Assembly: GCA_000002435.2 (NCBI GenBank)
Contig: CM018793.1
DNA from: Giardia intestinalis
Taxonomy: Eukaryota
DNA: 64,000 nucleotides
Reading direction: 5' to 3' (one strand)
Position numbers and translations under genes: made by a program. Below the pieces are notes generated by a model, which was given only the letters and a program-made list of their open reading frames with translations, made no database searches and was not told the origin of the DNA. Below, one piece after another: positions 3,760-21,055 of this stretch (position 1 is the stretch's first letter; each line of letters opens with the position of its first letter).

Positions 3760-6700
3760 TTATATCTTGGCGTTTTCAGATTTCACACTACAGCCGTCAC
3801 TTGCGCACGTCCAGAAGCACCGGGCGGGAGGGAAGCTGAAGAGGGTAGCCCCATGCCCATCGCGAAGCACACACGCCGTGACGAACTGACTGAGTATCAT
3901 TTGGATGTTGAAGGAGTACGACAGTATCAGGCCCGCATACTGAAGGAACTGTATCCCGCCGATGTTGACAGGCGCAATGACGCAGCTGATAAGAGCGATG
4001 AAGCCGCAAAAGAAGGCCCCAATGACGTTCAGTCGGAAGCTCAGCCAGCGGGGGAGAGAGATCTGCATCCAGTATGCCGACGAGTTGATCGTTATCTGCT
4101 CCCGGGCCTTGGCGATGAAGTGGGACTCGAAGCTGTACGCACGAATCGACGGCAGAGCCCCAAGGCTCTCTGTGCAGATGTTGATGACCGGGGACTTGGT
4201 TATGCTCTCCAGTCGCTTCACCTGCGGGGCAACGCGGCGGAACATGAAGAAGATGACAGCGTAGAGGATGATCGTCGGGATGACGACTATAAGGGCCGGC
4301 CAGGCCAGGACGCATATCATTACAAGCATCCCTACCAGTGACGCGCCATTCCCCAGCGCCTGGTTTATGAACCGCATCACCTGGATGTCCATGGAGTCTG
4401 TGTCCTTGCTGAAGCGGTTGAGGATCCGCCCCGTCGGAGTTGTGTCAAAGAACGACATCGGCGATCTGAAGATAGATCGGAGCATCTTCTTGAAGAGTGC
4501 GCGCGCGGCAGAATTAATGAACGAGACGAGGAAGACAGACGACAGGTAGGCCATAAGCATCGTAGACACGGTCATTCCGGCGTAAATCCCGATGTACTTG
4601 TAGTTGTACGACTTATCGGTGTCAGACAGTTTGAAATGATACTGGTCCTTAACCCAGTGATTGATCAACACGCCCTGGTATTGGGTGGATCCCTGCCATA
4701 GCAAGACAAAGACAAGGTAGCAGAGGAGGCTGCAGCGAGACCCGGACCTGAACCAGCGCTTGTAGAACGTCCCTGAGACGGACCCCTGCTGAGCAAAGGC
4801 CTCTGCAAGCATGAGCTTCCCCTTGGCCTCGTTGCCGTCATCGGTCATCAGCGCCAGGTCGCGCCTCTTCTCCTCGTCGGTCTGGGTTGGAATAACGAGC
4901 TGGCTCGCCACGCTCTCGATGCGTCCGGCATTGTTTAGCCCGCTGGCCACGGACGTGGTGCGGGAAAATCCGAAGTCGATGCCCTTGTTCATCAGGTTGT
5001 CCGGCGTGTCGCTGTGGACGATCTCCCCGTCCTCGATCCTGATGACAAGGTCGCAGTTTCCGAAGTACTGCGTCTGGTGGGACGCTATCAAGACGGTGGT
5101 CCCCTGCTCCTTCAGGAATCCACAAATGACCTCGTTCCACAGCCTCTGCCCGACGTGCGAGTCGACGGCGGAGAGGGGGTCGTCAAGGAGCAGGATGTCA
5201 CAGCCCGAGTACACGGCCCGGGCCAGAGCGACGCGCGCCTTCTGCCCGCCCGACAGAGAGACGCCCTTTTCACCGATCTCTGTCAGGTCGCCCGCCTTGA
5301 AGAGCTTGAGGTCGGGTATCAGGCAGCAGATGTCGAGCACCTTTTCATAGCGAGCACGGTCGAAGGGCCGGTAGAAGACGATGTTGTCACGCAGGGTGCC
5401 AGAGAAGATGCAGGACGACTGGGCAAAGTACGCGACGGACCCGTAGATGTGGACGTGGGGGATCTGCGGGTCGAACCTGGGGTCCTCCGTCGAGTACTTC
5501 TCGACGAACGAGGTAGGAGGCGTTAAGCCGGTCTGGTAGTCGAACTTGATCTCCAGGTTGTTAAACTTGTAGGAGTCCAGCTTTGCACGCTGCTCTCTCA
5601 CCAGGCGCAGCTCGCCCAGCAGAGCAGAGAACAGCGTGGTCTTGCCGGCGCCAACAGGCCCGCAGATCCCCACGAGGTAGCCCTTCGGTATGCTGAGGTC
5701 GAGGTTCTTGATGCGTGGAGGCAGATCAACGTGGTTGGGGTTCTTGTCGAGCTGCGTGTCAATGATCTGCTTGCACCTGGCAGGGTCTTTTCTGTACTTC
5801 TTGAGGTCGCGCGACACTTGGTTCTGCTCGGCGGCCAGGTCGTAGAGACCCCGTACCACAATCCGGTGCAGGAACGTCTTCTTCAGCACCTGGTAGGGAT
5901 TATCGTCCGGCGACGCCTAGTAGGCCTGGGGAATGTAGGCGCCGAACGACGTCACCTTGTCGGGCGGTAGGAGGCCGAACTCAATGACTCACGAGTCGAT
6001 GTAGCGCATTGCATCGGCCTCCTTGTCGGTAACATCGATGGAGTCGAATCGATTCAGCAGGATGTCTTCCTCGGTGGCGTCCACGGATACGGAGGGGTTC
6101 TTTGTCTTCCACGCCTTGTACTCCTTGACCTTTTTCTCGTAGTGCTTCTTAAATTGGGGATAGAGCTGCAAGACCTGCCTCTGCTTCTTCATGTTGTCCT
6201 TGAACATCGGGTCCAGGAGCGGCGGTATAATGGAGTCCTCCCTCAGGCCCCAGCAGAAGCTGGGCTGGTTGGACGTTTTGATTGCGTAGGGCACCGTCTC
6301 GCCCTTGGTAAGGGTATAGGACCTCTCGCGGGTGACGACCCCGTAGTCCGGCTGCGGAAGCGTTATAAAGGTCAGGATGTGCTTGGAGCTTATCTTCGAC
6401 TCGGAAATCCCGGACATCATCAGTGGCATGAAGACAAACACCAGGCCCAGCATGTTGTATACGAACACCGCGGTGTATGCGTTGGCAACGTCAAAGCTTG
6501 AGCTGGTCATGAAGAAGAGGAACCCGAAGAGGGACATTAATGGCGCTGCACCGTTGACGACAAGACCAAAGCCGGAGAGAATGATGCCAAAGCGGAAAAT
6601 CATCCCTATCTCCTTGTTGCGGATGTTCATCACTCGCGCCTCTTGGACATCCTCCATTCCGAAGAGCTTGACGACCTTCATTCCGTTGAGGACCTCAGAG

Positions 6701-7251
6701 ATCTTCTTGACACGCAGGTCTGTCATGCTGAGCAAGGAAAAGAGGAGCCGGGTAAAGGCAAACAGGATCAGTCCAACAATCGGCAGGATGATGAAGAGAG
6801 CAATCAGGCCTCCAATCCCTTTGGGGTCGATCTCGATGGCCATGTAGACCAGGTAACAGACAAACATCAGCGGCATCGTCATCATGAAGATGAGCAAAAG
6901 CATAAAGTTCGAGATTCTCATCGTGTCTGCGAAGAGGAGGTTGACCAGGTTGCCGGCGGCAGAATTTTGGCGGGTGATGTCCGAAAGAGACAGGGTGGCC
7001 TCGTCGGGACATTTGGACACTGACCTACTCTGCCTATTTGAAGGAGACCAAGCTCCCTCGTGACTTGCTGCAATCCTCCGTGGCTGCTGATAGTGGCATG
7101 GCAGCCAGAATTGTAGAGGAAACAGAGTCTGCTGCGAAGACCATATGCCAGACCCTTCAGACCGCAGAAACGAATCTGGTCCAGAAGCTGGTTGTCCCAC
7201 CGCGATGCAATCAGGCGTTTCTGGGCGCCTTGACACCGACTGAGCTGTCAC
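3760..7251 (-). pseudogene. ABCC (MRP)-type ABC transporter, apparently decayed: N-truncated TMD1, NBD1 and TMD2 present, reading frame broken by two in-frame stops, no intact NBD2
   Basis: ORF 5989-7251 encodes the distal part of TMD1 (GNLVNLLFADTMRISNF... and ISEVLNGMKVVKLFGMEDVQEARVMNIRNKEI, matching ABCC GEIVNLMSVD and NEILNGIKVLKLYAWE). ORF 3760-5889 encodes NBD1 (Walker A GICGPVGAGKTT, signature LSGGQKARVALARA, Walker B ILLLDDPLSAVD) plus a six-helix TMD2. The two ORFs are in the same frame, separated only by TGA at 5989-5991 and TAG at 5917-5919. Upstream of 7251 no ORF continues TMD1, and the ORF's first M is a GTG. Confidence 0.55.
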
Positions 7252-10059: not shown

Positions 10060-10614
10060 ATGACGATAATTCACTCCACCCCGATTACTTCCAGGGCTGG
10101 GTCCGCCCACTAAGACGGCAGACCAAGGAGGGCGCCATTAATAGACAACACGAGTCCATGAGAAGGCCAGAGATCTGGAAGCACACCCAGACAGGGTCCA
10201 CGCCACACGGAGCAACCGAGGAACGTGCCGGATTCTGGATGTGTTGGCGGAGGGAGCGCCTATTGTGTTATCCAAAATCAGCCATCGCCTCTGGGTATGG
10301 CCAAGAAGTGGACAAGAATTTACTCGTGAGGTCTCTGGACCACGGCCACAAGCGATGACCAGCAGCACAGCACTGGGGCTAATCGACGAGGGGTGAATCA
10401 CCTCGGCCGATCTCAGTCAATAGAAGCGGGCCTAGTCAGCTCAGCCTAGCCTCCCCTCTCCTTCAATCCTGGCCTTAACCTGTGACGCTAGCCAGATCCT
10501 GTGCTTTTCTGGTCCACTCGCTTCGGCACATCTTTTGCATTTAATTTCAACCACGATTATGTTCGCCACCACAAGCGATCATTCTTCTGTTCAACAGATC
10601 TACTAAAATATCAA

Positions 10615-11991
10615 ATGACGCTTTCCGAAGACACCCTGAGGGCCGTGGAGGCGACCGCCGGCCTCATCGCCGCTCAAGGCATCGAGTTTACTCGCGCCTT
10701 CTACGAGCGCATGTTGACCAAGAACGAAGAGCTGAAGAACATCTTCAATCTAGCCCACCAGCGCACCCTGCGCCAGCCCAAGGCCCTGCTCGACTCCCTC
10801 GTCGCCTACGCGCTGAATATCCGTAGGATCAATGAGCTGTACGAGCTGAAGGGGAAGGGCCTGCCGGTGCCGCCAGAGCACTGGGCCGAGCTGCAGGGCT
10901 TCTTCTCTGCCGCCGAGCGTGTCGCGAACAAGCACACCAGCTTTGGCATCCAACCTGCGCAGTATCAGATTGTCGGCGCACACCTGCTCGCTACCATCGA
11001 GGATCGCATAACCAAAGACAAGGACATTCTCGCAGAGTGGGCCAAGGCCTACCAATTCCTCGCCGACCTCTTCATCAAACGCGAGGAGGAGATCTATGCC
11101 GCGACAGAGGGCTGCAAGGGCGGGTGGCGCCAGACTCGCACGTTCCGCGTCGAGGAAAAGACCAGGGTCAACGAAATCATCTGCAAGTTCAGGCTCGTCC
11201 CGGCTGAGGAGGGCGCCGGCGTGGTAGAGCACAGGCCCGGGCAGTACCTTGCTATCTTCGTCCGCAGCCCCGAGCACTTCCAGCACCAGCAGATTCGCCA
11301 GTACTCAATTATTTCGGCGCCGAATAGCGCGTACTACGAGATCGCGGTGCACAGGGACGAAAAGGGGACTGTTTCCCGCTATCTCCATGATTACGTGAGC
11401 ACTGGCGATCTGCTCGAGGTCGCGCCGCCTTACGGGGACTTCTTCCTCAGGTATCTCGAGGCCGATGAGCAGGCCCCTGCGGACACACAGGCCTCGCAAG
11501 AGTTCCAAATGCTGCAGAGCGGGGCCATCAACTTTGCGGCAGAGAAGACGATGCCGATTGTGCTCATCTCCGGCGGCATCGGCCAGACCCCGCTGCTGTC
11601 GATGCTCAGGTTCCTCGCGCAGAAGGAGGGCAAGGAGACGGCCCGCCCCATCTTCTGGATCCATGCCGCGCACAACAGCCGCGTCCGCGCCTTCAAGGAA
11701 GAGGTTGACGCGATCAGAGAGACGGCTCTGCCAAGCCTGCGCGTCGTGACCTTTCTGAGCGAGGTCAGGGCGACGGACAGAGAGGGCGAGGATTACGACT
11801 TCGCCGGGCGCATCAACCTTGACCGTATCTCGGAACTCACCAAGCTGGAGGCAGACAACGCCAATCCGCACTACTTCTTCGTCGGCCCGACCGGCTTCAT
11901 GACCGCCGTGGAGGAGCAGCTCAAGACCAAGTCCGTGCCCAATAGCCGCATCCACTTCGAGATGTTCGGCCCCTTCAAGGCCTCCCATTAG
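10615..11991 (+). CDS. hmp: Flavohemoprotein (nitric oxide dioxygenase), bacterial Hmp type
   Basis: N-terminal globin domain (LSEDTLRAVEATAGLIAAQGIEFTRAFYERML...HQ...) followed by an FAD-binding region (RQYSIIS, GTVSRYLHD) and an NAD-binding region (IVLISGGIGQTPLLSML). The ATG at 10615 is preceded by CTAAAATATCAA. The ORF-track start at 10501 is a GTG. Confidence 0.9.
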   Translation: MTLSEDTLRAVEATAGLIAAQGIEFTRAFYERMLTKNEELKNIFNLAHQRTLRQPKALLDSLVAYALNIRRINELYELKGKGLPVPPEHWAELQGFFSAAERVANKHTSFGIQPAQYQIVGAHLLATIEDRITKDKDILAEWAKAYQFLADLFIKREEEIYAATEGCKGGWRQTRTFRVEEKTRVNEIICKFRLVPAEEGAGVVEHRPGQYLAIFVRSPEHFQHQQIRQYSIISAPNSAYYEIAVHRDEKGTVSRYLHDYVSTGDLLEVAPPYGDFFLRYLEADEQAPADTQASQEFQMLQSGAINFAAEKTMPIVLISGGIGQTPLLSMLRFLAQKEGKETARPIFWIHAAHNSRVRAFKEEVDAIRETALPSLRVVTFLSEVRATDREGEDYDFAGRINLDRISELTKLEADNANPHYFFVGPTGFMTAVEEQLKTKSVPNSRIHFEMFGPFKASH

Positions 11992-15608: not shown

Positions 15609-18275
15609 TGCAAGGCTGGATCCTCTTACTATGATATTGAGGACTGTAGAGTAGTCCGCTGGAACTGAAGATAAGGAAGCTCACATCAAAGGGATTTACC
15701 TGTTCTCAAACACGCAATTTTGTGGTGTTGAGGGAGTGAATCGGCGGCGCAGACGGTCTGTTGTTCAGCGAGGCCTGCGAGCCATCAAGCGCCTCGACGC
15801 TGGATCCGGCTTAGAGGAGTCCAAGAGGTGCCCTGTGATTCTTCGGTGCTGCGTACAGTGTTGCAACCTGGGGCGAGGAGTACTAAAGGCAAGAGAAGCG
15901 AGGCCACAGAGGCGGGTGTTCGGGGTACCAAGACAGCGGCCACCACGAAGGAAGGATATAGCAGTCATGCAGGCCTCGCTGACCTCCTATTTGTGAAATA
16001 GCTCTATTAGCTAAAGTAGACGAGAGAAGCAACGTTCTGCGGAGTGTGGCGTCCCAGCTCGGTGAATTGCGTCTGCAGGGTCCCATAATTGAGAAGCCTG
16101 GGCAATAGCAGAGAGACAGCAGGACCTAAAGTAAGTGGCATCCTATCTTTCTGAGCACTAACACTCATAACACTTGTCTCAGTGTGCATGCCTGTGAGCT
16201 GTCTAGTCGCTTCTTCGACGGCACTGAAAGGCGTGACATATGTGGTACTGTTCTAGAAGACTACGAGGGTAGGAGCGACCACTAATGAGCTGCCGGTAGG
16301 ATAAGGCATAGGGCAGAAGCTGCTTTACGCGTCTAGTCTCCTGTGGACAGGTTGAGGACAAGACCGTTCCACTACCAGCCCGGTCCTCGATGTTGGTTGC
16401 TACCAGGGCCACTGACGCACTTGGGGACCGGCGACAGCTGCGTGAGTAACAGACACAAGGGTCGCGTTTTGGACCGTAGCCGACCTGTCTTAGCCGCGGC
16501 TCGGAGGAAACAAAGCGCTAGTTGCTCGCACGGCTTCTATTGGATATCTGTGAAGGCACCCAAGCTGCGCAGTCAACGATGTGATGGCCACGAGGGGACA
16601 CGCATGCACAAGACAGGGCTCCAAGGGTCAGAACACAGCGAGAGCCCAGGTCTCGCGCTAGATTCAGCCAGCCTCAGTGGCGACGGCTTGTGATTCAGAG
16701 CAAACGACTCGCCTAATCACGTTTAGAGTGTTTACACGCCCCTGTACACGACGAAAGGAAGGGTGGCAGAGTGGCTTGAAGCATCTTCACGATCGCTCCA
16801 CGAGGAAGGGCCTTGCCATGTAGATGCAGCGATTGTGGCAGTGACGCCAAGTCTCTCAAATCCACCACCAGTGGGAAGGCCTCAGCAGCAAGCGACCAAT
16901 GCCGATGTTCTATTGTACACGCTTCAGCCTCGTTACACTATGCACTGAATTAGCACCAGACAACGACATCTGCTGCATGGCTCACGCGCATCTGTATATG
17001 TCCCTATCACAGGGGCACCCATGGGCGAATTGAAGGACAGCCTTCCCCACGTCAGCGGGTCTATAGGGCGCTCTCTAGCGACGGAATACAATGCACCCTG
17101 CTGCACTGGCAAGCCCATGAATACAGCTGAGGGTCAAAGCGATAGCCCCAGGGACGAGGCACTTTCTGAAGACAGACTGGCTTGCCAAAGGGCAGTACCT
17201 GGTGCTTCGTCGCTGGAGAAGCAGCCCAGCCAGGGCCCTGGTCCAGGTATCAAGCGTTCTTGTTCGCCCTGGTTGTGCCGGCCCAAGGATAGTCTGCATC
17301 CACAGCTCGAGCTTCCAGTTGGGCCGCCTTAGTCGCTGTTGATCATGACTTGTGGAAGACGAAGAGCGGCGCTGTTCTGGGTGTGCTGTAGGAGCATCTT
17401 GTCGTTGCGATCTTTTTTTAAAGGCTCATTATTGAGGTGGGAACACAGCGTCTGTCGTTACTGCGCGGGCTATAGCCTGGTCACAGAATGGCCAGAGTGG
17501 GGGCCCTCGGGCTGCCAACCACGCGCCTGCAACATCTCTGGCGACCTGCAACGGCCCGTGCTGTCTTCCCTAGCACTGGTCCTTCGTACCCCCGCGCAGC
17601 TCCTTGACCGAAGAAGTGCTCTGTCTACCCCTCTCTTCTGCTGATGGAGCACTGCCTTATGCCGTGTCTCCGGGCCGTTGTTTGCTTGAGTGGCGTCGGC
17701 GATGAGATGTCCCCCTTGTGAGCAGCCTAGATACTATCGTCAGCACCACCGTGAGTAGTAGGGATGCTAGAGCGTATCGGATTGCTCATTCTGGGGTCTG
17801 GACAATGGCCCCTAGACAGCTGCTTTCGTGCCGTGCTTGGACGAGCTGCGGCCTCATAGCACGGCCCACTACATCTCTCTCCTCCGGAATCGGCTGACTG
17901 CTGCTGTCTCTAGTGTCCGGGCAGATGCGCAGGCTGTAGTTGGGGGTTAGCTGGCCATGTCTTAGATACCTCGCCGCGGTGGGCCAACGATGTGGCTAGA
18001 GAGCTGCAGCGCTCTCCTGAGGTTGGGGTCTAGGATGATGTGTGGACACCTAGGATACATTTCCAGCTGTATCCCATCCAGGCCATTGCTCTCGATCCTG
18101 CTTCGTCGAAGTCCCGACCAAGCCACTTGCGCCGCGTAGTCACAGTGTGGGCCGCTGCTCCAGTGGATGCGTTGATCGACCATCTCGACTTTTCCAGGGA
18201 TCGGTCCGGGTCTCCTACAGGCCTACATCAGCACTCTTCAAGCCCTCGTTGACACAACAGCGCGGCTACGCCTCC

Positions 18276-18282
18276 GTTTACT
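18276..18282 (-). terminator. Putative polyadenylation signal AGTAAAC overlapping the TAG stop of the Cys/Asp-string membrane protein
   Basis: The minus strand reads TAGTAAAC at the end of the ORF. Confidence 0.5.
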
Positions 18283-19327
18283 ATACGAAGGTGCTCAGTT
18301 GTGCACGGGACACAGTAAGAGTCGAGCCATCATATGGGTCAGTTACTTCCGCCGGAGAGCGCGTCAGCTCGTACGCATAGGAGCCGCTTTGCGTAACGTT
18401 AGAGAACGAGCTCTGAGGAGTGTACTCGTCGTCGAGGTCGTAAAACTGCTCGTTGCTCTCTTGGATGTGCTTTCTGCGCAGCTCGATGAGGTACGTAAGG
18501 AGATAGCATACGACGTTGGTGAACGCGAGGATGAGCCCGGAGGTCATCAGCTGATACTTCTCGAAGTGATGAGCTACTTTAAGCTTCTCCATTGTCTTCT
18601 GGGAGCTGGCGGCGATGATGACGAAGATGAGCCCGAAGGAAAGACTGGTTCCAAGCACAGGAGCCAGGCTTCTCACGCACTTGTTTCGCGAGGTCACACA
18701 CGGGAGGCAGACGGTGAGGGTGAGGATCCACGCCACGCCCATGCACAGCGACGCATACCCGCTGTACTGGCCTAGCACGAAGACCACAGGGCTCATGGAA
18801 GACCTGTACCACTTTCCCAGTGAAACAACGGTGACAAGAAACGGCATTGCAAAGTAGCATATCAGGTCAACGAGAGCACAGTACCCCAATCCGATTGACA
18901 TGAGGTAGAAATATACAAACCCGTCCAGATCCTGGCAACCGTCTGTGCACGCGTCGTAGCAGTCGAAGCTTTCGCAGCAGTCACAGTCACAGTCGCAATC
19001 ACAGTAACAACAGCAATCGCAGCTGTCGCAATCGCAACAGCCGTGCTCCTTCAAGCATTGAAACCAGCTGATGGAGTGGGTGACGCCGTAATAGAGGACG
19101 AAAAGAATGAGGGTCATATTGACACCGACCCATATCTTAAAGTCGGTGCTGGCGGCCTCATCGAAGACGCACGCACCAAACTTCCTCTCCTCCTTGCTGC
19201 AGCGGTCTATGTGCAGCTTGACAGCCGTAATATTACGCGGCATAGAGCCTAGCGCCAGCGAACACAAAATGCATGGGAGCCCCACGAGCAGGAGCATCCT
19301 TATCCTTCCAGACCAGTAGCGCCCCAT
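18281..19327 (-). CDS. Polytopic membrane protein with a cysteine/aspartate string (about 6 TM helices)
   Basis: 348-aa ORF. An N-terminal hydrophobic segment and a TM helix are followed by CCDCDSCDCCCYCDCDCDCDCCESFDCYDACTDGC, which has 20 Cys in about 35 residues. Four more TM helices follow, then an acidic, Tyr-containing tail. The ATG at 19327 is preceded by TATTTAAAAAGAAATTGAAGG. Confidence 0.7.
   Translation of the reverse strand: MGRYWSGRIRMLLLVGLPCILCSLALGSMPRNITAVKLHIDRCSKEERKFGACVFDEAASTDFKIWVGVNMTLILFVLYYGVTHSISWFQCLKEHGCCDCDSCDCCCYCDCDCDCDCCESFDCYDACTDGCQDLDGFVYFYLMSIGLGYCALVDLICYFAMPFLVTVVSLGKWYRSSMSPVVFVLGQYSGYASLCMGVAWILTLTVCLPCVTSRNKCVRSLAPVLGTSLSFGLIFVIIAASSQKTMEKLKVAHHFEKYQLMTSGLILAFTNVVCYLLTYLIELRRKHIQESNEQFYDLDDEYTPQSSFSNVTQSGSYAYELTRSPAEVTDPYDGSTLTVSRAQLSTFV
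18950..19045 (-). repeat. Imperfect hexanucleotide-periodic tract (TGYGAY)n that encodes the Cys/Asp string
   Basis: Plus strand reads GCAGTC ACAGTC ACAGTC GCAATC ACAGTA ACAACA GCAATC GCAGCT GTCGCA ATCGCA. The minus strand is TGC/TGT and GAC/GAT codons in near-alternation. Confidence 0.5.
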
Positions 19328-21055
19328 GCCTTCAATTTCTTTTTAAATAATGTCCGCAATAAAGGGACATCTCGCAGCAGCGTCTGTTGATATATCGTTA
19401 CCAGACCTCTTGTTCCCAAGTAAGAGGCGCAGGTTGGTTCTAATCTGCCATTGCCCACTAGGGGCAACAGAAAGCAGATGGGCACACAGCCATCCCTGCT
19501 CTTGCCGATGGAGTTGGCCGTAGAGTGCTCACATCCAATCTCAACAAAGATTGGACGTGTCATAATGGTTTAGAATTTTAGTAACATTTTTATGCACACA
19601 CTGAAGGATGAGGGCCACGCCTACATACCTCGCTACTGAAGTGCTGCAGGCGCTATATCCTATGCTACGACGTATAGGAGAGGCAGGGGCGACGGACAGA
19701 GGATAGAGTAGCTCAGAGGCCCCTCAGTCGAGTGAAAGGCTGGCCACGGGCACGGGTTATAGCCTGGGTACTCCTTGCAGACGTGTATCGGGATCAAGTG
19801 TAGCATTGCTAGGGCCACATTCCAACGCGTCTGAGGTTGCTTGACGAACACGCTGCTGCACGATTTAGCAGAAACTACTGCGACCTTCAGTGAGCCTTTG
19901 ACACGTGTCTTGTTAATTGCCAGGTTTGCGCGCCTTAGCAATCCGTTGGAAGTGGGCGCACAGGAATGTTGTATGATCGAGGAGATAAACGGAGCTCTGG
20001 TTAGCGAGGTGGGGCGGGCCCAGTAGTCCCGCATACCCTAGAGATGGGCGGGATTTTGGAGGAGATCCTAGGTCCGAACCCAAAATCCGAGATTCGGATG
20101 CCATAGTTCTGGCGGGAAAGGAGAGCTTCGTGCTTCCGGTTCGAGGGCCACCGTCCCGCCTTTCACACTGCCCTTCTAGAAATTTTCATTCCCTTCACTC
20201 AATCCCCGCGGGGTCAGCTACTGTCTGGCAAGCAGCTCCAAGCTCACCATCTATGCTACAACGCACGGATCTTTTGTGATGATAACAGTGATGTGATAAA
20301 ACTAATGAGGTGCTATGGCTCGACGGTCAACACTGGGTGTGGGAGCACTGAGGAGCAGGAGGCCTTCTTCCTGGCCGGTCGAAGGAGCCCCCAGGGCAAC
20401 GGAGGGCTGAAGCCAGTGATGGTACTAATCACTCGCCACGCTGGTTGAGATGGACCCACACGTGACTCATGTGAATCCCTCGACAGGCAAGTCGGGATCC
20501 TTGGGGTGCTTGGCTGACAGAAGCAGACTGAGTCCTGGCTACCCTAATCGGCCGGAGGAAGGGGAGGTCTTAGAAAACACTGCGAGAAGCACAACAGATC
20601 CCAAGAGGATAGGGCAAACCTTCTTCTTCTCCCACGGGGATCTAGGACATCCGGTTCTCGGGTCTCGGACGGTGAGCGGGAAGCATGCTCAGGGAGGCGA
20701 TGACTCGCATGGAAAACCTGTTCGGACAGCAGTTGACAAGCTAAATTCAGTGAAACAGAGTAAGTGAGTGGCTCCTCTCCTGCTGTGTCACGATAGAACG
20801 GACGCTGCTTGGAAGAACAGCCAGCAGGCACACTCCTCTGCACACAGTGGGACCGCGATAAGGCAGACTGATAAGCCAATAATGCAAAAGTCATTCACAT
20901 AGCATTGCCGTGGGGCATGATGTCCGGTATGCAATAAGCACCACCTCACAGTGCACGCACACGCCGGCAAGCTTATGCGGCCATTACATAGACTTGGAGT
21001 GAATGAGCGATGTGACGCTCGTGGAGGAGCTGATGCGCTTGCCTCTACAAAGGAA

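Follow-up and report, generated by a model that had tools for sequence, protein, structure and literature searches.

GL50803_3269, a gene at positions 18281-19327 on the minus strand of a 64-kb chromosome piece from Giardia intestinalis WB (assemblage A; the whole 64-kb stretch is called the window below), is a conserved, expressed-looking and uncharacterised gene for a six-helix membrane protein. Between the second and third hydrophobic segments its product carries a string of 35 residues (CCDCDSCDCCCYCDCDCDCDCCESFDCYDACTDGC, residues 97-131, window 18935-19039) that contains 16 cysteines, 10 aspartates and 1 glutamate. Comparison with its relatives suggests that, in the loop holding this string (L2), a short cysteine cluster common to a Giardia-only family has been enlarged in a lineage-specific manner. 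Our favoured, although still tentative, reading is that L2 is an expanded juxtamembrane S-acylation 'cysteine string' on the cytosolic face of the membrane.

A dense cysteine/aspartate string between two membrane segments

The open reading frame (ORF) begins with ATG and encodes 348 residues followed by a TAG stop. Its product is 100% identical to GL50803_003269 (GL50803_3269; XP_001704474, KAE8306021, UniProt A8BWB9), annotated as a hypothetical protein of Giardia WB. An earlier reading of the window, made from the sequence alone, had described 20 cysteines in about 35 residues. The string it quoted is present verbatim, with 16 cysteines rather than 20; a count of 20 is not reached in windows of up to 45 residues, the densest of which holds 17. 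The cysteine density of the string is nevertheless far above chance, and the second-densest 35-residue window among all ORFs of at least 100 residues in the 64 kb, including three VSP/HCMP-like genes, contains 8 cysteines. L2 as a whole (residues 90-136) holds 17 cysteines, 14 aspartates or glutamates and a single lysine or arginine.

Kyte-Doolittle hydropathy identified six hydrophobic segments (residues 12-27, 66-89, 137-170, 180-212, 221-243 and 260-284), with the string located between segments 2 and 3. AlphaFold2 models of the WB protein and of its Giardia muris homologue placed helices at positions matching these segments; the G. muris model, built from seven sequences, had a predicted local distance difference test score (pLDDT) of 64.7 and a predicted template modelling score (pTM) of 0.60. 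These results bear out the sequence-only reading in describing a polytopic membrane protein. The features of the gene and its product, with transmembrane segments abbreviated TM and the basis of each assignment in brackets, are as follows.

18281..19327, minus strand: coding sequence of GL50803_3269, 348 residues plus TAG stop (ORF call, identity match)
19247..19294, minus strand: hydrophobic segment 1, residues 12-27, with R3, R8 and R10 on its N-terminal side and ALG|S after it; putative signal peptide or N-in signal anchor (hydropathy, model, sequence)
19133..19246, minus strand: loop L1, residues 28-65, with the cysteine pair C43/C53; predicted exoplasmic (alignment, loop counts)
19061..19132, minus strand: TM2, residues 66-89 (hydropathy, model)
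18920..19060, minus strand: loop L2, residues 90-136; predicted cytosolic (loop composition)
18935..19039, minus strand: Cys/Asp string, residues 97-131, beginning with the family-conserved CC (composition count, alignment)
18980..19003, minus strand: exact (TGYGAY)4, extending over 18974-19009 with 1-2 mismatches (Tandem Repeats Finder, pattern search)
18932..18985, minus strand: conserved core CDCCESFDCYDACTDGCQ, residues 115-132 (orthologue comparison, codon comparison)
18818..18919, minus strand: TM3, residues 137-170, with the family-invariant Asp154 (hydropathy, alignment)
18692..18790, minus strand: TM4, residues 180-212, with invariant Y191, G197 and W200 (hydropathy, alignment)
18599..18667, minus strand: TM5, residues 221-243, with the short basic loop L4 (TSRNKCVRS) before it (hydropathy, alignment)
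18476..18550, minus strand: TM6, residues 260-284 (hydropathy, model)
18284..18475, minus strand: C-terminal tail, residues 285-348, RRKH and then an acidic stretch rich in Ser, Thr and Tyr, of low model confidence; predicted cytosolic (hydropathy, model)

L2 and its string probably face the cytosol, together with the N-terminus, L4 and the C-terminus. Segment 1 resembles a signal peptide, with its three preceding arginines and its A-L-G|S end, and whether or not it is cleaved this would place L1 on the exoplasmic and L2 on the cytosolic side. The charge distribution of the seven paralogues described below points the same way, with 7-9 lysines and arginines on the L2 face vs 3-5 on the opposite face.

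The cysteines after TM2 are conserved in a Giardia-restricted family

Judged by its relatives, GL50803_3269 belongs to an orphan, genus-restricted family of six-helix proteins. Matches in a word-indexed search were Giardia orthologues only, comprising the proteins of assemblage E isolate P15 (GLP15_4085, 336 residues) and of assemblage B (GL50581_921 / QR46_3177, 343 residues), a 339-residue lineage (P0005) and a 322-residue form (P0002). When 1.84 billion representatives were searched exhaustively with a HMMER profile, six proteins reached E <= 0.001, four of which were judged real: the assemblage-B orthologue P0004 (E = 1.2e-197), the paralogue GLP15_818 (P0030; E = 1.3e-28), part of a further 3269 orthologue (P0031) and a 249-residue protein (P0034; E = 2e-8). 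The other two were repeat proteins and were taken as spurious. A later profile search added GMRT_11397 of Giardia muris (P0037; E = 9.8e-53), which is 78% identical to P0034, and the paralogue group includes GL50803_95451 of WB itself. Profile E-values and a 13-sequence alignment of 3269 orthologues, paralogues and G. muris homologues, to which the conservation counts below refer, show full-length homology across the family (3269 / 95451 / GMRT_11397). Its members share the invariant residues P18, P30, W66, C97, D154, Y191, G197, W200, G226, F231 and Y275.

No homologue outside the genus Giardia was found by the word-indexed search, the profile search of the 1.84 billion representatives or the later profile search. 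The sequence-only reading had been unable to place the protein in a known family, and other comparisons led to the same result. Scanning the 13 members against Pfam-A with hmmscan gave no credible match at E up to 10, and tblastn against phage records gave none. The best hit of a profile search against Protein Data Bank (PDB) sequences was a non-significant match to the acetylcholine receptor transmembrane region (E = 0.12), and for the G. muris model Foldseek found no PDB structure with an E below 1.0 or a TM-score above 0.31.

A cysteine cluster directly after TM2 is present in all 13 aligned members, with C97 invariant and C98 kept in at least 90%. What surrounds these cysteines differs markedly between branches. 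In the 3269 orthologues the loop is acidic (6-14 aspartates or glutamates) and contains 4-17 cysteines. In the paralogues it reads CC(K/S)(C/S)(S/N)(K/R)xRN, for example CCKCSRNRN, with 2-3 cysteines, 2-3 basic residues and no acidic residue. The G. muris cluster, KCVLCCCAACCPCICCC, lies in a hydrophobic context, and the loop as a whole (KCVLCCCAACCPCICCCFD) has 10 cysteines and a single acidic residue. Since the surrounding residues shift from acidic to basic to hydrophobic across the family, the conserved feature is the cysteine next to TM2, and loop acidity is specific to the 3269 orthologues.

The loop cysteines are also one-sided in 13 of 13 members, with 3-18 on the face formed by the N-terminus, L2, L4 and the C-terminus vs 0-2 on L1, L3 and L5. 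The cysteines of L1 form a conserved C-x9/10-C pair, corresponding to C43/C53, which is kept in the 3269 orthologues and the G. muris homologues, and L4 contains one cysteine in every family member. The G. muris protein additionally carries an N-terminal MCGC and a C-terminal KPCFCCGK, both on the same face as its L2 cluster.

In the loop of the 3269 orthologues the distal 18 residues, CDCCESFDCYDACxDGCQ, form a core that is nearly unchanged. Between assemblages A and B this core differs by 11 synonymous vs 1 non-synonymous codon changes, and all 6 cysteines persist, with the codon switched at 4. The core protein sequence is thus under strong purifying selection.

A candidate S-acylated cysteine string

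If L2 is an S-acylated cysteine string, Giardia DHHC acyltransferases would palmitoylate the cluster after TM2 at multiple sites, and the acyl chains would tether the TM2-TM3 loop to the inner leaflet, with a possible influence on sorting or microdomain residence of the protein. Giardia has nine DHHC proteins, and juxtamembrane or tail cysteines of its VSPs and of HCNCp are S-palmitoylated (PMC4109852). We favour S-acylation because the cysteines are juxtamembrane and appear at the ends of several TM segments on a single face, because in most members they sit in a basic or hydrophobic context, and because the Giardia DHHC proteins acylate comparable cysteines of VSPs and HCNCp. During evolution of the 3269 orthologues the ancestral CC would have become a long acidic, cysteine-rich loop, which in assemblage A may have grown further by in-frame gain of TGY-GAY (Cys-Asp) units.

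The alternation of the two residues could also serve such a site. Modelled as an alpha-helix, residues 121-135 would gather C123, C127, C131, L134 and Y124 on one side, with D122, D125, D129 and D133 opposite, and the period-2 (Cys-Asp)n stretch would give the same split between a cysteine face and an aspartate face in an extended chain. Thiols or acyl chains could thus point toward the membrane and carboxylates toward the cytosol. We propose that the extra (Cys-Asp)n units are a dispensable, tolerated low-complexity expansion of a functional site, since a natural 322-residue haplotype lacks 26 residues of the string and since assemblages E and B have 9-10 loop cysteines vs 17 in A.

Several observations weigh against S-acylation or against the topology it requires. 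Known acylated cysteine strings lie among hydrophobic or basic residues, and L2, which has 14 acidic residues and would bring a net charge of roughly -13 next to an anionic leaflet, would be an atypical member of that class. The histidine and aspartate residues of the assemblage B and E loops (CCEHDGC and CCDHDGC, respectively) resemble metal ligands. The positive-inside count of the 3269 orthologues is ambiguous, or reversed if L1 is counted, and the AlphaFold2 model of the WB protein, built from five sequences, had a pLDDT of 40 and was unusable. Literature searches found neither a Giardia palmitoyl-proteome nor a paper naming GL50803_3269, and a search on a Giardia 'cysteine string' found nothing relevant.

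Were the loop acylated, it would be among the densest S-acylation sites known and the first cysteine string reported in a diplomonad, in a polytopic rather than a peripheral protein, and it would offer a handle on how the nine DHHC enzymes organise the unusual membranes of Giardia. For now GL50803_3269 is a curiosity in an uncharacterised gene, the most striking part of which is dispensable in at least one natural haplotype.

Metal binding and reverse topology as alternatives

The sequence-only reading had held that the alternating acidic residues favour metal coordination. A metallothionein-like site, with Zn2+, Cd2+, Cu+ or an Fe-S cluster bound in a thiolate cluster by the Cys/Asp(/His) loop on the cytosolic side, is the foremost alternative to S-acylation, and in our view rather unlikely. 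Such a site might act as a buffer, a sensor or the regulatory gate of a transporter with the invariant Asp154 of TM3, a buried residue, in its pore. The string is rich in C-X-C and CC with its 16 cysteines and 10 aspartates, the loop is acidic in all 3269 orthologues, those of assemblages B and E having a histidine beside the CC, selection on the core is strongly purifying, and cysteine-rich surface proteins of Giardia (VSPs) bind zinc (PMC4488794). The basic loop of the paralogues and the hydrophobic one of the G. muris homologues, however, do not keep the acidic residues and histidines. Family-wide only the post-TM2 cysteines are retained, which weakens the argument from alternating acidic residues and is closer to what juxtamembrane S-acylation sites would show than to a Cys/Asp metal site, although the acidic 3269 loops may still bind metal. 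A defined cluster would hardly tolerate a haplotype without most of the string or a range of 4-17 cysteines among orthologues. The aromatic residues Y108, F121 and Y124 are also unusual for metallothioneins, and no metallothionein or metal-transporter family was matched in Pfam at E up to 10.

S-acylation and metal binding are not mutually exclusive. A more elaborate proposal, which we regard as improbable, is that L2 forms a membrane-tethered metallothionein-like thiolate/carboxylate metal cluster, or a redox buffer in an organism not known to contain glutathione, on a Giardia-unique class of six-helix transporters or sensors. Its capacity would be adjusted from one host-adapted assemblage to another as Cys-Asp units are gained and lost. 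A literature search found no paper on a Giardia metallothionein. If the loop does bind metal, it would represent a membrane-bound thiolate metal buffer in a parasite with clinically relevant zinc and cysteine biology.

Reverse topology would instead have the string facing the lumen of the endoplasmic reticulum or peripheral vesicles, or the cell surface. In such a setting disulfide formation or metal binding would be expected of it, by analogy with the CXXC-rich ectodomains found in Giardia VSPs and HCMPs. The charges of the 3269 orthologues lean this way, with 10-17 lysines and arginines on the odd-numbered loops including L1 vs 7-9 on the string face; without L1 the opposite face has 4-8. 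Acidic loops are more common outside, and Giardia has many cysteine-rich exoplasmic proteins, with VSP/HCMP genes flanking GL50803_3269 itself. Against this arrangement, the arginines before segment 1 and its signal-peptide-like end put L1 outside and L2 inside, and in the paralogues L2 is short and basic and the overall charge bias favours L2 inside. The C-terminal KPCFCCGK of G. muris resembles the palmitoylated cytosolic tail of VSPs and necessarily lies on the L2 face, and GL50803_3269 has no VSP Pfam match. We therefore consider an exoplasmic string quite improbable.

Variation of the string between lineages

At the DNA level the sequence-only reading had assigned the string to a near-periodic (TGYGAY)n tract at 18950-19045 that might be length-polymorphic. 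The periodicity was confirmed in part, with an extent somewhat different from that claimed: exact (TGYGAY)4 occurs only at 18980-19003 (24 nt) and extends to 18974-19009 when 1-2 mismatches are allowed, with 0 matches expected in shuffled sequence. Tandem Repeats Finder reported a period of 6 with 5.3 copies and 80% matches at 18978-19009, as well as a period of 18 at 18975-19022. The slippage potential of the tract appears small, as the longest perfect tandem is only TGTGAC x2 and the repeat score is weak. The string is not an assembly artefact, since it is identical in all seven assemblage-A protein variants, which come from 94 contigs, among them those of the two NCBI WB assemblies and the DH isolate. 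The 338- and 362-residue assemblage-A variants differ in the called start only.

Length polymorphism was borne out between lineages, which have at least 5 loop lengths including that of a haplotype with 26 residues missing, and not within them: the tract has no length variants in assemblage A (7 protein variants, 94 contigs) or in assemblage B (16 sequences). The labile part of the loop is proximal to the core. Assemblage E has CCDHDG here, assemblage B CCEHDGCGNYDNN, another lineage (P0031/P0035) CCNDCDGCDDCDRC(H/Y)D and assemblage A CCDCDSCDCCCYCDCDCDCD; the (Cys-Asp)n part is specific to assemblage A. A second assemblage-B allele, CCEHDGCGDCDNN, has the same length as CCEHDGCGNYDNN with one more cysteine and one more aspartate. 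The two assemblage-B alleles (P0004, P0015-P0028), GCGNYDNNCDCC and GCGDCDNNCDCC, coexist at equal length in the part of the loop equivalent to window 18990-19010, and they differ by two linked substitutions (NY -> DC) that add the cysteine and the aspartate. The family is Giardia-specific and its orthologues range from 4 to 17 loop cysteines between assemblages, and it might for this reason be useful for typing or be a sign of host adaptation.

The 322-residue haplotype (L001-L004) was recovered from four read sets (SRR445169, SRR445170, ERR15315897 and ERR13302886) in three accession series, and its contigs are 99-100% identical to one another. The 26 missing residues include the CC, and a gained Cys89 creates a juxtamembrane CQC. 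Compared with the window, the haplotype is 97-98% identical over 16800-18956 and 78-87% identical over 19042-19593. This step in identity falls exactly on the tract (18956-19042), which suggests that the tract is a recombination or gene-conversion boundary, part of a mosaic allele, or a deletion hotspot. Sequences P0012-P0014, from the same cluster as the 322-residue allele, are different mosaics of A-like and E-like segments.

These patterns bear on whether the string has a function at all. Slippage or unequal exchange of TGY-GAY pairs might have inflated a linker in which at most the few juxtamembrane cysteines matter, and such an origin would fit the local hexanucleotide periodicity, the restriction of (Cys-Asp)n to assemblage A with an independent version in P0031/P0035, and its shortness or absence in other lineages and deletion in L001-L004. 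The adjoining core is nevertheless strongly constrained, loop length is fixed within assemblage A, and enrichment for cysteine and aspartate arose independently in at least 3 lineages, including the assemblage-B NY -> DC allele, which hints at directional pressure rather than drift. We give a functionless expansion little credence.

Comparison with known cysteine-rich membrane proteins

Taken with the known systems to which it can be compared, the string of GL50803_3269 looks like an unusual form of the juxtamembrane cysteine string, in an unstudied Giardia-specific family and with a putative function. It shares with DnaJC5 (cysteine-string protein alpha) a membrane-located cysteine run, with about 13-16 cysteines in a span of about 25-35 residues, and CVLCCCAACCPCICCC of the G. 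muris homologue is very similar to the DnaJC5 string in composition. Unlike DnaJC5, the protein has no J domain (no Pfam DnaJ match) and its string is an inter-TM loop of a polytopic protein, whereas that of DnaJC5 is the sole anchor of a soluble chaperone. The intervening residues in WB are aspartates rather than hydrophobic or basic, and acylation is putative. Juxtamembrane poly-cysteine S-acylation sites, such as those of the coronavirus spike endodomain, claudins and tetraspanins, the CRGKA tail of Giardia VSPs and HCNCp, likewise place cysteines right after a TM at several TM ends, on what would be the same, cytosolic, face. They are not homologous to GL50803_3269, the loop of which is far longer and strongly acidic; the family profile gave a weak, non-significant match to the spike S2 chain (E = 0.2).

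Cysteine-rich cytosolic metal-binding tails are found in metal transporters, for example at the C-termini of plant HMA4 and yeast Ctr1. These tails and the metallothioneins resemble the string in their C-X-C and CC motifs, its cysteine content of about 45% and, in some orthologues, acidic and histidine neighbours. They differ from it in that the loop belongs to a polytopic orphan, contains aromatics, varies from 4 to 17 cysteines and matches no family, and metal binding by it is putative. Membership of the metallothioneins themselves was rejected: no metallothionein profile in Pfam-A matched any of the 13 members at E up to 10, and metallothioneins are small, soluble proteins of about 30% cysteine with few or no aromatics, whereas the motifs here occur in a 348-residue six-helix protein with Y108, F121 and Y124.

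The VSPs and HCMPs are cysteine-rich membrane proteins of the same organism and genome neighbours of GL50803_3269 (21056-23470 and 24174-26315). They are type I proteins with CXXC-rich ectodomains and PF03302, a single TM at the C-terminal end and a tail of CRGKA type, whereas the cysteine cluster of GL50803_3269 lies on the opposite, putatively cytosolic, face. The protein was excluded from this group, having six hydrophobic segments, a C-terminal STFV and no PF03302 match, while the neighbours do match PF03302.

MARVEL four-helix proteins are similarly small and multi-span, with both termini presumably cytosolic as here, and differ in having four rather than six hydrophobic segments. The paralogue GSB_150093 (P0041) bears the UniRef name 'MARVEL domain-containing protein', and this assignment was rejected: none of the 13 members matched PF01284 at E up to 10, the sole MARVEL-related Pfam signal being CASP_dom in one paralogue (E = 0.76), and hhalign of the family profile against a sequence taken as that of human MAL gave a probability of 0.2%. 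PLAC8/CYSTM membership, the latter marked by a tail-anchored cysteine-rich TM, was set aside for lack of a Pfam match. The CCCAACCPC of G. muris fits the PLAC8 motif CCXXXXCPC by eye, likely by chance within a run that is nearly all cysteine.

Flanking signals and genomic context

Two further elements adjoin the coding sequence.

19331..19350, minus strand: A/T-rich stretch TTATTTAAAAAGAAATTGAA, ending 3 nt 5' of the ATG (read from sequence)
18276..18282, minus strand: AGTAAAC, overlapping the stop codon (read from sequence)

The first is a putative initiator/promoter element, resembling the A/T-rich initiators of Giardia, and the second a putative polyadenylation signal, in line with the Giardia consensus AGTRAAY. 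A single public contig (P0010, 362 residues) reads through 19328-19369 from an upstream ATG. In this contig the A-run before the start codon, presumably within the initiator region, is shorter by one A than in the window.

No second copy or paralogue of GL50803_3269 was found in the 64-kb window, and searches of the literature by locus tag and accession found no paper on the gene, its orthologues or its paralogues. The supplements of an encystation transcriptome (PMC8700996) had no entry for GL50803_3269, and a literature search on the surface proteome yielded nothing useful.

Large ORFs of the window match the Giardia VSP family, DNA polymerase alpha with a zinc finger, a DEAD-box helicase and other eukaryotic proteins, and the order of genes around GL50803_3269 carries no operon meaning. 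G+C content is about 53-62% in most of window 1-27000, where GL50803_3269 lies together with the VSP/HCMP-like genes and those for an ABC transporter and a flavohaemoprotein, and about 44-50% in window 28000-64000, which holds DNA polymerase alpha, the helicase and other genes. Local synteny differs between assemblages: in P15 an MFS_1 transporter lies upstream of the orthologue (L006, contig ACVC01000581, 1219-3255), and the corresponding position in WB (21056-23470) is occupied by a gene for an 804-residue VSP-like protein (PF03302). The flavohaemoglobin-type protein is encoded at 10501-11991 on the plus strand, with Globin, FAD_binding_6 and NAD_binding_1 domains. On the minus strand, adjacent ORFs at 3760-5889 and 5989-7251, both listed with GTG starts, each match ABC_membrane, and one also matches ABC_tran; they may represent a single ABC transporter gene that a stop or frameshift interrupts, or the mechanical way in which ORFs were listed may have produced an artefact.

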